Below, piece after piece: positions 36,150-60,074 of a stretch of 64,000 nucleotides of DNA; the stretch's first letter is position 1; each line of letters begins with the position of its first letter. The notes under the pieces were generated by a model, which worked only from the letters and a program-made list of their open reading frames with translations, made no database searches and had not been told where the DNA came from. The position numbers were made by a program, and so were the translations under genes. Source of the stretch: a virus (lineage: Duplodnaviria; Heunggongvirae; Uroviricota; Caudoviricetes); the IMG/VR virus record IMGVR_UViG_2565956708_000007; one strand, given 5' to 3'.

Positions 36150-36434
36150 GTGGCAAGTATTGCAACAAAAGACAGCATTTGTTCGGGGCACGGAGGATTC
36201 CCATCCAGGCCTCCTGTAGAGAGTGAACCACTACTTAAAGTCAACGGAGTCGAAGTGTTAGTTGATGGTAAGCAATATGCACAGCATACCGATGGAAACA
36301 GTACGCACGGTGGGCAAGCTATATCAACCAGGGCATGGTTTACCGTCAATGGTAAAGGGATCGTATGCGTTGGTGACCCTGTTTCATGCGGATCTACCGT
36401 AGCGTCCGGAGACGGCCTGGTTCAGGTAAGTTAG
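36150..36434 (+). CDS. PAAR-repeat spike-tip protein, GTG start
   Basis: 94 aa; SGHGG, VCVGDPVSCGS and ASGDG segments typical of PAAR proteins. Confidence 0.55.
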   Translation: MASIATKDSICSGHGGFPSRPPVESEPLLKVNGVEVLVDGKQYAQHTDGNSTHGGQAISTRAWFTVNGKGIVCVGDPVSCGSTVASGDGLVQVS

Positions 36435-53168: not shown

Positions 53169-53185
53169 AAATCTATTAGAGCATT
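53169..53185 (-). promoter_or_regulatory. C1 operator-like site for the c4-icd-ant operon
   Basis: plus strand AAATCTATTAGAGCATT, 15/17. Confidence 0.7.
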
Positions 53186-53281
53186 ATCTGATTAGTAAAT
53201 GCACAACTGGATCTAATAACCTCTTTTTTTTAAAGGCGAAAATATGTACCCTAAATGAGTTATAAGGCAGGTGAGGTTATA

Positions 53282-53929
53282 ATGAGAAAACTATTACTAC
53301 CGTTATTATTTATGGCTGGGACTGTTAATGCAGCATCAAGCGTAAAGGAGATTTGTACCGATTATACGAAATACCTTGGGCACGTTTACGGCTTTGCTGT
53401 CAGTCAAGACGAATCCATGCGCAAGAAGTTACTGTCAGATATGAAACGCCTTAAACTTTCTGAAGCGATGGTGCAGCAAGAACTGTATAAAGTCGCAACC
53501 AACGAAAATGCTAAATATCAATATTCTCGCCTGTTAAATCCCGACGCAAACGAGATCAATCGAAGCTCTTTCGATTATATGGTAAAGGCATGCGAAACCG
53601 CTCCTGATTTTGCTATTCCTAGCTGGGGTGTGCTGGTGGCGAGCAATGCCGTTAATAAAGAAGACGTTGGAAGAAATGGCATTGATTCAATCAGAAACTC
53701 ACCGGGAATGCGCCATCAAAACGTTCAGGGTACGCTTGAAGAACGGGCCAGGGGGCCGGGTACAAACTCCCCAATGGGAAACCTCTCCCCGGAGGAATTG
53801 CAAGAGTATAACCAACGGATGGAGCAGTATGAGAAAGCTGCACGCGAAAAAATGGAACAACAAAAAAACGGATCTCTTAATACTTTCCAGCAAGGTTTAA
53901 AAGCGCTTAATTTACCCTATGAATGGTGA
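53282..53929 (+). CDS. Secreted protein with signal peptide, Sim-like (putative superinfection exclusion)
   Basis: signal peptide MRKLLLPLLFMAGTVNAAS; about 215 aa; shares GMR...VQGTLEERARG motif with Sit. Confidence 0.5.
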   Translation: MRKLLLPLLFMAGTVNAASSVKEICTDYTKYLGHVYGFAVSQDESMRKKLLSDMKRLKLSEAMVQQELYKVATNENAKYQYSRLLNPDANEINRSSFDYMVKACETAPDFAIPSWGVLVASNAVNKEDVGRNGIDSIRNSPGMRHQNVQGTLEERARGPGTNSPMGNLSPEELQEYNQRMEQYEKAAREKMEQQKNGSLNTFQQGLKALNLPYEW

Positions 53930-53980: not shown

Positions 53981-54457
53981 ATGCGCATCAAACGATTTTT
54001 ACTAGTTATTGCTTTGCTTACTCCGTTTTCATCAATGGCAAATGTAAGCAAATGGTCAACCGGCGAGACTCACGGTGTTCGTTCTTATGCTGTTTCCAGC
54101 AAAGATAATTATACGCTTACATTTGAGTGCGATGTTGGATTTAATAATACGGATCCCAATCAAGTAGGAACACGACTACTCACTCTCATGAAAACAGAAC
54201 CTGGCGGTGAGTCATTTGAGGCTAAAAAAGAACAAATAACGCTGAAAGTTGGTGATGATGAATATCCTATCAGTTCTATCGGTTCCTCTGTGGGTGATAG
54301 TTACTGGTATGGTTTTTGGTCAGATACCCCTGATATGGAAGTTAAAACATTCGATGCATACGTAGACGGAAAAAAAATCGCAACATTTACGCTACGTAAG
54401 GCCGCAGAGCTTTTCAACGCGGCACCTGAAGATGGCTGCCTGAAGCGCGCAAAATGA
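53981..54457 (+). CDS. Secreted hypothetical protein with signal peptide (158 aa)
   Basis: MRIKRFLLVIALLTPFSSMA signal peptide. Confidence 0.5.
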   Translation: MRIKRFLLVIALLTPFSSMANVSKWSTGETHGVRSYAVSSKDNYTLTFECDVGFNNTDPNQVGTRLLTLMKTEPGGESFEAKKEQITLKVGDDEYPISSIGSSVGDSYWYGFWSDTPDMEVKTFDAYVDGKKIATFTLRKAAELFNAAPEDGCLKRAK

Positions 54458-56681: not shown

Positions 56682-59600
56682 ATGGAAAGAAAAAACGCCA
56701 ACATTGACGATGTGATAAGGACGGTTGAAACCGCCAGCGCAAAAGAGCTGGAAGAGCTTGCAGGTATTCGGGAAGCCGTTGAAGATTTGAAAGGTGGGCG
56801 AGTTGCTACAGTTGATCCTGTCTCTCGCAGTGTGTCGGCATTAAATCGCACAATCGAAAATTCCCGGCCAGACTTTGTGGCCAATGCGCCATCAGTGGAC
56901 CCTATTGTTGAGGCAATGAAACGGCTTAATTTAGGGGACGTTTCTCGTGTAGTTCAGGAGGATGTTGCTCTACAGGAACCGCAGGCCAAATCAACTACGC
57001 GAAAGGGTAAAAAACGACGCAAGAAGGCTATAACAGAAGATGTAAAGGCGCAACGGACCGAAGCAGCCGAACACGCTCGCGAAATGTTCGGTCAAAAAGG
57101 CGGTGCGCAAAAAAGCCAAAACCAACGCGATGCGCGTGGTCGTTTTATTGGAAAGTCAGGGAGTAAGGCCGCAGCGGAAGATGCCCGTGCTGAACGTGCT
57201 GAAAAGGCCAGGCGCAAAGAGGATGATGAGCGTCTAAATGCTGAATCAGGTTTATTAAAAAAACTGTCAAAAGTAGCTGAAGGCATAGGTAACCCTTCAG
57301 AGACTCGTGCCGTCGATGCGTTAGGTTATGCCGTTGCTGGTCCATTGTGGGCAGCAGGGAAGGAGCTTGGCGGGATATCAAAAGAAGTTGGTGGATCGCT
57401 TAATGGTGCCAGAAAGTCTATTGCCGATGTGATTCGTGGCAATGACGATAACAGCCGTAGAAAAGGTTTTTTTAGGCGTAAATCGCAAAATAGTGCCGAT
57501 GTCGTTCAGGTTAACACCCAAAAACGGACGGTTCAGGAACTTCAGGAGCAGACCAGCGAAATTAAAGAGGGCAATGACAAGATTCTCCGCGCCCTTGATC
57601 AGATAGCCAAAAACACCGGGAAAAAGAAGGGCGGCTTGCTGTCCAAACTATTTAGCCTGTTAGGGAAGGGGGCCGGTGGCGTCGCGTCGTTGTTAATGGG
57701 GCGTGGCATGCTGAAAAAAGCTGGAGCACTCGCTTTTGGCGCTCTGGGGGCAAAGAAACTTGTAGGAATGCTACGCGGTGGTGGCAAGAAGACTCTCGCC
57801 CATGAAGGCGGAGATTTGGCTGCCCGGGCAGCAGGTAAACTTGGATTAAAGGCAGTTGGTAAAGGGGCGTTACGCGCAATTCCCCTAGTCGGCACAGTGG
57901 CTGGAGGTATTTATGATGCGGTAACCGGTTGGAATGATACAGAAGCGCAACGTCGAGCGTTTGGGCTTAAATCAGGACAAGATCCATCATTCCAGCAAAA
58001 AGCCGCTTATACGTTAGCCAATGTTCTTGATTTGGGGGGACTGGTATCTGGTATTAGCAGTGCTATTGGTGATGTTCTCAAATCACTTGGATTTGAGGAT
58101 ATCGGCAATATGTTGCAATCATTTTCGACGGAAAGTATTGCCCAGGCCATTGATAGCGGGGTTACCAACTTAGAAACATATATTTCTAACCTTGGCGACA
58201 CCATTTCTACCAAGTTCGATGATTACACAGCAAAGATTGGTGATGCTGTTTCAGCATGGTTTAGCGATACATCTAATAAGTTGCTTGAAAAGCTGGATGC
58301 CATAAAAGACTTCTTTACTGTCGATAACCTGAAACAGGTTTTCAGTGATGCAATTGATAGTGCAATTGACTTCATTAAGAACCCAGGGAAACACATTAAA
58401 GAGGCGGCTGGTAATATTTGGGATGGGGTTAAAAATTTACCCGGTAAAGCATTAGATGCAGCGGTTGATGCCGTTAAAAATACCCCTGCGGCAATGATTG
58501 TATCAAAAATACCCAATCCGATCGGCGAGGCTAATGCAAAAGAAATCACTCCAGAGTTAAAAGCTCCGGTTAATAGCCACCAGGAGACATCTGATTCTAA
58601 AACTGAATCCGATGCTAAACAGACTAATATTGCTACCCGCGTGATAAATGCGGCACTGGACACGGCGAAAGATAGCAATAAAACAGTTAAAGAAACTGCC
58701 AATCAGATTATCAATGCAAATGCCGTAGAAACGGGCAATAGCGCGGTGCGGAAAATTGATTCAGCTATTGGACAAAATAGCTCGTCATCATCGTCGCGTA
58801 ATACCACCGGCACTGGGAATGACATTCAGAAAGCTGCTGATACCTACAATAATGGCAACTTAGATGTAAAAGTCGGAAGCCTTGGCGCTGAAGGTAAGGC
58901 AAATCTCGATAAGTTAGCTCCGTATTTTGCTGAACTAGAGAATAAATATGGTCTTCCTGAAGGCACTCTTTACGCGATTGCTGCAACTGAATCTGGTGGT
59001 AATCCATACGCAAAATCCCAAACTGGTGCTCTAGGAATGTTTCAGTTCACGGGCATTGCTCGTGAAGAGACTGGCTTAGCTGAAGGTGAATCGTTTGATC
59101 CTGTGAAATCGGCAGAAGCTGCGGCTCTTCTCATGAGCAAGTATCTGAAGCAAGCCAATGGAGACTTAAACGAGGCCATCACTGCATATAACGCTGGGTT
59201 TGGCACTATTAATAAGTGGAAAAAAGGCACCGGTGACTTATCGAAGGAAAACCGTGAGTACGCGATCAAGGTCAATACTCATCGTGCTCGCTATTTAGGT
59301 GGTGAAATCTATACACCTGGGGCAGGAGCACAGGGTGGGGCGCAATATGGAGTGAGGGGACAACTGCCTGATAACGCCGTTATCGATCAGTCTACTGGTC
59401 TGGCGTTTACCCCTGGTGATAGCCCGTTTGAGAAAGGCGGTCTGGTAGACAAAATCGGCAATGCTGTTGGCGTTAACGATCTGGTCAACAAATTCATGAA
59501 TGGCCGGGGTATGCGTCGGGAAGTCGTTCAGGGAACGCTCGAAGAACGTGCACGAGGGAAGGGGACCGCAACAGCAGCTGGCAATGTGTATGTTGATACT

Positions 59601-60074
59601 CCGATGCCAGTTGAAGAGGCGCGTCCGGTGGCCAGCAACTCAAGTTACTTTGACCAACTCGGCGCACAAATGGGGATTGATGGACTATTCGATAAACTCC
59701 GCAACTCGCCGGGGATGCGGAAAAATAATGCGCTTGAACCAGCCTCCACGTCCCAGGTGACGACTGCCGCCAACGATTTGCAGCAACCAACCGGTCGTAT
59801 GCAGATAGACGGACAGGTTATTAGTGACCTTGGCGGCTCCGGTGCCAAGCCGACAATGCAGTTGGCTGATAATACCGTTTCACTTGATGGTGAAACGAAG
59901 CGGCTGTTTGCGCAGATGACCTCATTGCTTGCCAGGATTGAAGAGCACACCAAAGACTCGGCGAAAGGCCAGGGAACTGTCGTAAAGGTCAGCACGCCTC
60001 AGCCGGGCGTTATGCGCACGGTACCACTGTCAATTGATGATCCGTTGATGAATGACTACGCGAGAGTTGATTGA
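56682..60074 (+). CDS. sit: Sit-like protein: tape-measure-like protein with lytic transglycosylase (SLT) domain
   Basis: 1130 aa; Gly/Lys-rich repeats; SLT motifs ATESGGN, GALGMFQF, AYNAGFG near residues 750-830. Confidence 0.8.
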   Translation: MERKNANIDDVIRTVETASAKELEELAGIREAVEDLKGGRVATVDPVSRSVSALNRTIENSRPDFVANAPSVDPIVEAMKRLNLGDVSRVVQEDVALQEPQAKSTTRKGKKRRKKAITEDVKAQRTEAAEHAREMFGQKGGAQKSQNQRDARGRFIGKSGSKAAAEDARAERAEKARRKEDDERLNAESGLLKKLSKVAEGIGNPSETRAVDALGYAVAGPLWAAGKELGGISKEVGGSLNGARKSIADVIRGNDDNSRRKGFFRRKSQNSADVVQVNTQKRTVQELQEQTSEIKEGNDKILRALDQIAKNTGKKKGGLLSKLFSLLGKGAGGVASLLMGRGMLKKAGALAFGALGAKKLVGMLRGGGKKTLAHEGGDLAARAAGKLGLKAVGKGALRAIPLVGTVAGGIYDAVTGWNDTEAQRRAFGLKSGQDPSFQQKAAYTLANVLDLGGLVSGISSAIGDVLKSLGFEDIGNMLQSFSTESIAQAIDSGVTNLETYISNLGDTISTKFDDYTAKIGDAVSAWFSDTSNKLLEKLDAIKDFFTVDNLKQVFSDAIDSAIDFIKNPGKHIKEAAGNIWDGVKNLPGKALDAAVDAVKNTPAAMIVSKIPNPIGEANAKEITPELKAPVNSHQETSDSKTESDAKQTNIATRVINAALDTAKDSNKTVKETANQIINANAVETGNSAVRKIDSAIGQNSSSSSSRNTTGTGNDIQKAADTYNNGNLDVKVGSLGAEGKANLDKLAPYFAELENKYGLPEGTLYAIAATESGGNPYAKSQTGALGMFQFTGIAREETGLAEGESFDPVKSAEAAALLMSKYLKQANGDLNEAITAYNAGFGTINKWKKGTGDLSKENREYAIKVNTHRARYLGGEIYTPGAGAQGGAQYGVRGQLPDNAVIDQSTGLAFTPGDSPFEKGGLVDKIGNAVGVNDLVNKFMNGRGMRREVVQGTLEERARGKGTATAAGNVYVDTPMPVEEARPVASNSSYFDQLGAQMGIDGLFDKLRNSPGMRKNNALEPASTSQVTTAANDLQQPTGRMQIDGQVISDLGGSGAKPTMQLADNTVSLDGETKRLFAQMTSLLARIEEHTKDSAKGQGTVVKVSTPQPGVMRTVPLSIDDPLMNDYARVD

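Follow-up and report, generated by a model that had tools for sequence, protein, structure and literature searches.

The Sim protein of phage P1 was reportedly described by Kliem & Dreiseikelmann in 1989 and by Maillou & Dreiseikelmann in 1990 as a processed periplasmic protein that blocks P1 after adsorption, and in phage T4 the Sp protein inhibits the tail lysozyme. According to Devlin et al. 1982, as cited in PMC10695390, P1 Sim (SimC) is a superinfection-exclusion protein; the simA gene is not essential to P1 (PMC10695390). Other phages, too, have envelope exclusion proteins that act on the tape measure or on ejection proteins, namely, TP-J34 Ltp, HK97 gp15, and P22 SieA (PMC10883804, PMC3952083). 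Several tape-measure proteins carry muralytic domains, including P1 Sit, T5 Pb2, and TM4 Tmp (PMC9024508, PMC1796659), and Sit has been reported both as a virion protein, by mass spectrometry, and as the tape measure (PMC9024508). The sim slot is one of eight hyper-variable regions in P1-like phage-plasmids, and the sim region of other P1-like phages houses other exported proteins, e.g., SimB/SimC or the lipoprotein and DUF5384 protein of P7 (PMC9603915).

Between 52.6 and 60.5 kb, the window (the whole stretch of 64,000 nucleotides analyzed here) shares 99.6% identity with the P1-like phage vB_EcoM-Ro157c2YLVW and, one slot excepted, 97–99% with P1 and P7. Genes are ordered from ant/icd/c4 (− strand) through this variable slot to the late operon pmgC-tub-pmgB-sit-pmgA-bplA (+ strand). 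The slot contains simA-simB-simC in P1 and the genes for a lipoprotein and a DUF5384 protein in P7; in the window, it contains genes for two putative secreted proteins annotated as hypothetical, one of 215 aa (53282–53929, + strand) and one of 158 aa (53981–54457, + strand, phrog_3429). The location of the SimA family between c4/icd/ant and pmgC-tub-pmgB-sit is the same in the window, in Ro157c2, in P1, and in eight diverse loci. Alignment to the annotated P1 record delimits a common upstream control region (53169–53217, + strand), in which the equivalent of a C1 operator, AAATCTATTAGAGCATT (53169–53185), is the counterpart of Op51 and lies directly upstream of the gene for the 215-aa protein. 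The PsimA promoter, itself a prediction in P1, is matched in the window with its −10 element TCTAAT kept and its −35 element altered, and our own scan of the + strand of this upstream region found no strong sigma-70 site.

The 215-aa protein matches the phrog_3933 profile over residues 1–215 (E=1e-136), and 28 homologues were found, several of which were named "simA domain protein" by their source. Members of this SimA family occur in elements of the P1 type from E. coli, Salmonella, Klebsiella, and Cronobacter. It also includes P1 SimA (P1_gp043, "putative superimmunity accessory function"), which resembles the window protein in its promoter-proximal position beside c4/Op51, its signal peptide, and its first ~45 residues, these being identical or near-identical to residues 1–~45 of the 215-aa protein; the upstream DNA, Op51 included, is common to both. 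Unlike the window protein, P1 SimA has only 52 aa; the Sit-like motif and the C-terminal helix described below are absent from it, as is the greater part of the helical domain, because in P1 simB-simC stand in for the rest of the 215-aa gene together with its 158-aa neighbor. The homology with P1 ends at codon ~46 of the 215-aa gene, where simB starts (window 53255–53420; P1 locus L002, 2155–2313). Since the match of P1 simA stops there and gives way to simB, the 52-aa simA of P1 is a truncated remnant and the 215-aa protein is full-length SimA.

A Sec signal peptide, MRKLLLPLLFMAGTVNA (53282–53332, + strand), was read from the sequence, with cleavage placed after VNA and before ASS, and the NA-ASS junction is invariant across SimA homologues. 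The product had been called secreted in the preliminary description, and the canonical n-h-c signal ending in VNA before A, along with two invariant cysteines, agrees with this assignment on the basis of the letters alone. Three further parts follow on the + strand, namely, a helical N-terminal domain (residues 18–125; 53333–53656) with invariant Cys25 and Cys104, a putative flexible linker containing the Sit-like linear motif (residues 129–171; 53666–53794), and a long C-terminal helix that forms a lineage-variable module (residues 170–208; 53789–53905). In an AlphaFold2 model built on a 17-sequence alignment, residues 20–125 of the N-domain reached pLDDT values >90, the linker containing the motif (residues 130–168) was modeled with low confidence, with pLDDT <50 over residues 143–165, and the long C-terminal helix came after it. 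SimA is thus predicted to be exported by Sec to the periplasm, its helical domain being disulfide-capable, its linker flexible, and its C-terminal module variable. The low pLDDT of the motif regions could, however, stem from the shallow alignments used for modeling (17 SimA and 10 Sit sequences) and not from disorder.

No significant fold or family match emerged for the N-domain. Foldseek returned no match to its fold in the PDB with E<=0.001, and neither NCBIfam nor PADLOC gave a hit for SimA. The Pfam PTP-like phytase profile PF14566 scored 26.6 bits against residues 24–109 (53351–53608), for a gathering cut-off of 27, and the same domain is stored as a precomputed assignment for many SimA homologues; the match is probably spurious, as it spans only positions 46–132 of the 158 in the profile, leaves the catalytic part uncovered, and has no fold support, and the phytase assignment was rejected. 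Comparison with SimB and PmgB revealed no homology, and none was found with proteins of the TP-J34 Ltp, HK97 gp15, and P22 SieA type, for which PADLOC likewise had no hit. Kinship with SimC was also rejected (hhalign probability of 0.08, no BLAST similarity), such that the label "Sim-like" used at first holds for slot position and SimA family membership but not for relatedness to SimC. The 215-aa SimA shares with P1 SimC its genomic slot and, as predicted, its export, and a proposed envelope-level block of P1-type phages; however, the two are unrelated in sequence, SimC lacks the Sit-like segment, and the exclusion phenotype of P1 maps to SimC.

Several frameshifted or truncated SimA alleles exist. 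Six database variants have 205 aa (P0002, P0004, P0005, P0007, P0008, and P0017); in the five that were aligned (all except P0005), separate junctions lead into one and the same alternative frame (window 53610–53900, + strand). These variants represent either repeated pseudogenisation or assembly errors.

The central observation concerns a peptide that SimA shares with Sit, the tail tape-measure protein of 1130 aa with an SLT lytic transglycosylase domain (56682–60074, + strand). In the secreted protein, the motif first placed at 53690–53765 is IRNSPGMRHQNVQGTLEERARGPGT (residues 137–161; 53690–53764), and the two Sit copies were found within a few bases of where they had been located, GRGMRREVVQGTLEERARGKGT at residues 941–962 (~59502–59567) and LRNSPGMRKNNALE at residues 1006–1019 (59697–59738). 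Pairwise alignment by BLASTP with composition adjustment yielded 23 identities over 47 positions between SimA 122–168 and Sit 927–969 (E=5e-9), with a second match between SimA 134–181 and Sit 1003–1041 (E=0.004). The Smith-Waterman score of 101 stands 11 sd above 2000 composition-preserving shuffles (mean 40, sd 5.5, max 67), none of which reached it, and the PHROG profiles of the SimA and Sit families cross-hit over precisely this stretch (E=1e-7 and 4e-6). The longest exact peptide common to both proteins is the 11-mer VQGTLEERARG. The shared segment proved longer than first noted, extending over ~45 residues (SimA ~129–171) and onward through G-x-G-T-x-x-x-x-G-N-[LV]-S-P, and the motif consensus reads [F/I]-x-N-[SA]-[PR]-G-M-R-[HQ]-Q-x-V-[QE]-G-[TS]-L-x-x-R-A-R-G-x-G-T. 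Within SimA, the core N-S-P-G-M-R-H-Q corresponds to residues 139–146 and the extension VQGTLEERARGPGT to residues 148–161.

At the DNA level, the two genes are only 53% identical over 43 aligned codons, with a 22/24-nt core as the sole local match, and different codons are used at 12 of the 19 residues that are identical in SimA and Sit. This low identity, combined with the differing codons, indicates that protein-level selection keeps the peptide in both genes. Recent DNA transfer, gene conversion, and a DNA-level element were rejected on the same grounds, i.e., a match limited to the 22/24-nt core, an identity of 53%, and a majority of differing codons. The homology of the segment is real and, as judged from codon divergence, selected at the protein level. 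The earlier suggestion of a shared module thus stands, with protein-level selection in both genes and a location in predicted flexible regions of both proteins.

The Sit encoded in the window, at 96% identity with its P1 counterpart, resembles it in carrying an SLT domain at residues 748–857 (58923–59252, + strand; PF01464, E=9e-27), which has a confident AlphaFold2 fold; its gene comes after pmgB. Past this domain lies a conserved island (residues 899–972; 59376–59597, + strand) with motif copy 1 inside (residues 929–972; 59466–59597, + strand), followed by motif copy 2, AQMGIDGLFDKLRNSPGMRKNNALE (residues 995–1019; 59664–59738, + strand). Among nine Sit proteins that are 50–57% identical overall, conservation over residues 901–960 amounts to 0.78–0.87, above most of the SLT domain, and G-M-R, G, R-A, and G-x-G are invariant in the motif. 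Copy 2 resides within a ~45-residue insertion (residues ~973–1030; 59598–59770) confined to the E. coli P1/P7 lineage and absent from the Sit proteins of Salmonella, Klebsiella, and Cronobacter; it comes in two alleles, RNSPGMRK and INARGMRS, and is the product of a partial tandem duplication. The Sit AlphaFold2 model, built on a 10-sequence alignment, has low confidence past residue ~875, motif included, and the monomer models are also of low confidence where the motif might dock on the SLT domain or on the SimA N-domain. Sit, with its C-terminus, is not resolved in the P1 cryo-EM maps (PMC12810830), and the supplement of PMC9024508 contains no peptide-level mass-spectrometry evidence of Sit processing. 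Searches of the literature found no description of a GMR island after the SLT domain with a lineage-specific partial duplication, nor any published description of the motif shared by SimA and Sit. Separately, the Sit proteins P0036 and P0046 of the E. coli lineage are mosaics that join a Salmonella-type SLT domain to an E. coli-type C-terminal module, the two being joined immediately ahead of PDNAVIDQSTG, where the conserved island starts (~59370, residue ~897).

An exhaustive HMMER search of 1.84 billion representative proteins with a 50-column motif profile returned ten hits, all Sit-like or SimA-like except for one repeat protein judged spurious, and a word-indexed search recovered Sit and SimA fragments only. 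Among these 1.84 billion representatives, the motif was thus found only in two P1-type families, Sit and SimA. No Sit-like segment was detected in SimB, SimC, Upf50.5/50.0 of P7, or the 158-aa neighbor. In PLSDB, 267 plasmids have a SimA match, and in 84 of them the match spans at least 80% of the protein; the remainder includes some with a 163-aa form, and most have the P1-type remnant only. Of 69 IMG/VR loci, ~24 encode SimA with 215 aa, 13 encode it with 163 aa, and 24 have the remnant, which places an intact allele in ~37 of the 69; the scan of genome contigs yielded four loci only. Many P1-like elements, including P1 and P7, do without an intact SimA, indicating that the protein is dispensable.

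SimA homologues all have N139 and R144, and nearly all have G142, M143, and Q146, with conservation of 0.72 in the motif core versus 0.28–0.33 downstream. A subset of homologues carries the extension V-[QE]-G-[TS]-L-x-x-R-A-R-G-x-G; several lineages lack it and keep the 8–10 residue core alone, and past G-M-R-[HQ]-Q such homologues have unrelated, cysteine-containing C-terminal modules. A distant homologue with an N-domain only ~40% identical retains NAPGMRHQAVKGSMAERARGDGT. The common natural allele of 163 aa stops 2–5 residues past the motif, which indicates that the N-domain and the motif together form a maintained unit.

The motif is conserved in both families; covariation of cognate pairs was not borne out statistically. 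In nine loci, the motif identity of cognate versus non-cognate SimA/Sit pairs did not differ significantly in a permutation test, the core being matched in ~50% of permutations and the whole motif in 8 of 24. Several lineage-specific resemblances nonetheless point suggestively to covariation. The SimA core LNARGMRT occurs with the Sit copy-2 allele INARGMRS in two of two cases and xPGMRH with xPGMRK in 33 of 36 (Fisher p ~0.014), an association between linked loci of related genomes that may reflect linkage only. EERARG is present in E. coli Sit alone, as in its SimA, other Sit proteins having AERAYG, and the SimA protein P0028 carries AERAYGKGTSTAMGN, which is nearly the Salmonella/Klebsiella Sit version. 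GSMA[ED]RA is found in the distant SimA P0040, whose contigs are too short to reach its cognate Sit, and in the distant Sit P0039, whose slot contains no SimA.

In nearly all lineages examined, a YfjT-family gene (PF27224, precomputed hits) lies downstream of the SimA-like gene, and SimA-like genes with their 158-aa or YfjT-type neighbors look like a conserved pair. Slot contents vary, as seen in two E. coli P1-like plasmids (L015, 8001–10258; L020, 7980–10641) that differ from the window. Their SimA has either 163 aa, stopping right after the motif, or 212 aa, with a cysteine-containing C-terminal module, and is followed by a YfjT-like gene and a gene for an SH3-domain protein of ~350–390 aa, L020 also encoding a small membrane protein. 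The gene for P0040 (176 aa; L017, 1–913) adjoins a homologue of a PAAR-like spike-tip protein and not c4/icd, which indicates that the SimA family is not bound to a single slot; this neighbor is UpfC-like, a homologue of window 36150–36434.

What the shared peptide does can be approached from the exclusion proteins introduced above. Ltp, gp15, and SieA are thought to interfere with ejected, conduit-building proteins; SimA would similarly be a candidate envelope protein, and Sit, which has a wall-cutting domain, is likewise expected to be an ejected protein of the conduit type. However, no sequence copy of the target has been reported in Ltp, gp15, or SieA, which are membrane proteins or lipoproteins, whereas SimA carries a copy of the Sit peptide. 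The possession of the target's own peptide would imply competition or mimicry rather than simple binding. The motif is short, selected, present in two proteins only, and predicted to lie in flexible, probably disordered segments, where short linear binding motifs are commonly located; these features plausibly identify it as such a motif, and the peptide common to SimA and Sit is probably a shared, selected binding motif.

Under the mechanism we propose, Sit would leave the tail tip and enter the periplasm during infection, as expected from analogous phages, and the periplasm would be the sole place where the two proteins meet. The motifs of SimA and Sit would bind one common partner, and SimA made by a resident prophage would occupy the partner of incoming Sit. 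This partner may be a host envelope or periplasmic factor needed by Sit, or else the distal tail lumen, the hub, or a Sit oligomer of the incoming virion, and its occupation would hinder wall penetration or DNA entry of superinfecting P1-like phages. Such mimicry is plausibly the most economical functional reading of the shared motif, and it fits both the history of the slot as a site for exported exclusion-type cargo and the precedent of exclusion proteins directed at the tape measure or at ejection proteins (PMC10883804, PMC3952083). That SimA in fact excludes superinfecting P1-like phages by mimicking a tape-measure motif has, in our estimate, somewhat less than an even chance. We are more hesitant about the decoy reading, in which SimA-family proteins might act as periplasmic decoys that display the Sit motif and compete with, or co-assemble onto, ejected Sit, and we put it forward only tentatively.

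Other accounts of the shared segment draw on the same observations. The motif could let both proteins dock on the same housekeeping factor of the host periplasm, for instance a chaperone, a protease, or a cell-wall enzyme, with SimA serving a role other than exclusion, e.g., envelope modification or lysogen fitness together with its YfjT-like neighbor. A flexible linear peptide in both proteins would suit such docking, as would the lack of significant cognate covariation and the pairing of SimA with a second secreted protein whose family also occurs in cryptic prophages. A core kept in E. coli, Salmonella, Klebsiella, and Cronobacter elements alike is also what a conserved host partner predicts, and a precedent exists in the HK97 tape measure, which needs a periplasmic chaperone according to Cumby et al. 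2015, as cited in PMC10883804. A general docking motif would, however, be expected in host or other phage proteins, whereas the exhaustive search recovered it from P1-type Sit and SimA only, and functions directed by one phage against another typically reside in places such as a variable sim slot next to the immunity region (PMC9603915); we consider host-factor docking unlikely. Mimicry could also take a plug or dominant-negative form and operate on the virion itself, if the motif serves to attach Sit to itself or to the hub or tube lumen of the tail (gp6, Tub, PmgG), in which case periplasmic SimA would bind incoming Sit, or the tail tip once it has opened, and plug the channel without competing for any host factor. 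The motif belongs to the C-terminal part of Sit, which myophage analogy and a low-resolution central baseplate density (PMC12810830) would place near the hub, and the resemblances in EERARG, GSMA[ED]RA (P0040/P0039), and the copy-2 alleles fit a phage-encoded, co-evolving partner. Because the Sit C-terminus is not resolved in the cryo-EM maps (PMC12810830), such a contact is nevertheless hypothetical; P0040 and P0039 may come from different phages, and the permutation test was negative. We consider this plugging of the tail improbable as well.

Explanations that leave the segment functionless in SimA fare worse. It could be a relic left by an ancient recombination or partial duplication involving sit and the gene in the sim slot, preserved in a tolerant linker. 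The two genes are only 3–6 kb apart in a mosaic region, breakpoints cluster at or just past the motif (after GMR[HQ]Q and before PS, after RARGPG and before VAP, and within EERA-SS, between A and S), and frameshifted or truncated alleles are on record. A neutral copy would decay, however, whereas the core is near-invariant among proteins with N-domains only 40–65% identical and diverged synonymous sites, and alleles intact at 215 or 163 aa are frequent (84 of 267 plasmids at >=80% coverage in PLSDB; ~37 of 69 loci in IMG/VR), so that we regard a relic as quite unlikely. As for chance, compositional bias, or a conserved DNA-level element, the segment is indeed rich in G, R, and E, but no shuffle of 2000 reached the observed score (67 at most, against 101), the BLAST match withstood composition adjustment, the family profiles cross-hit, and most identical residues are differently encoded in DNA that is 53% identical. 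The shuffles, the profile cross-hits, and the codon divergence together refute such an origin, whose probability we deem negligible.

Should mimicry prove to be the correct reading, SimA acting as a decoy would constitute the first exclusion system based on mimicry of a tape-measure motif, and it would point to a periplasmic or tail-tip contact that P1 needs for envelope crossing. The passage of DNA across the periplasm and the inner membrane in a contractile-tailed phage such as P1 is poorly understood, as is the role of the tape-measure region that follows the SLT domain. The shared 45-residue peptide offers an experimental handle, as a bait for the partner of Sit, and SimA is testable as a motif-dependent exclusion factor. 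The comparison also clarifies the annotation of P1, in which simA is a gene remnant, and shows that the sim slot of P1-like phage-plasmids swaps alternative exported cassettes.
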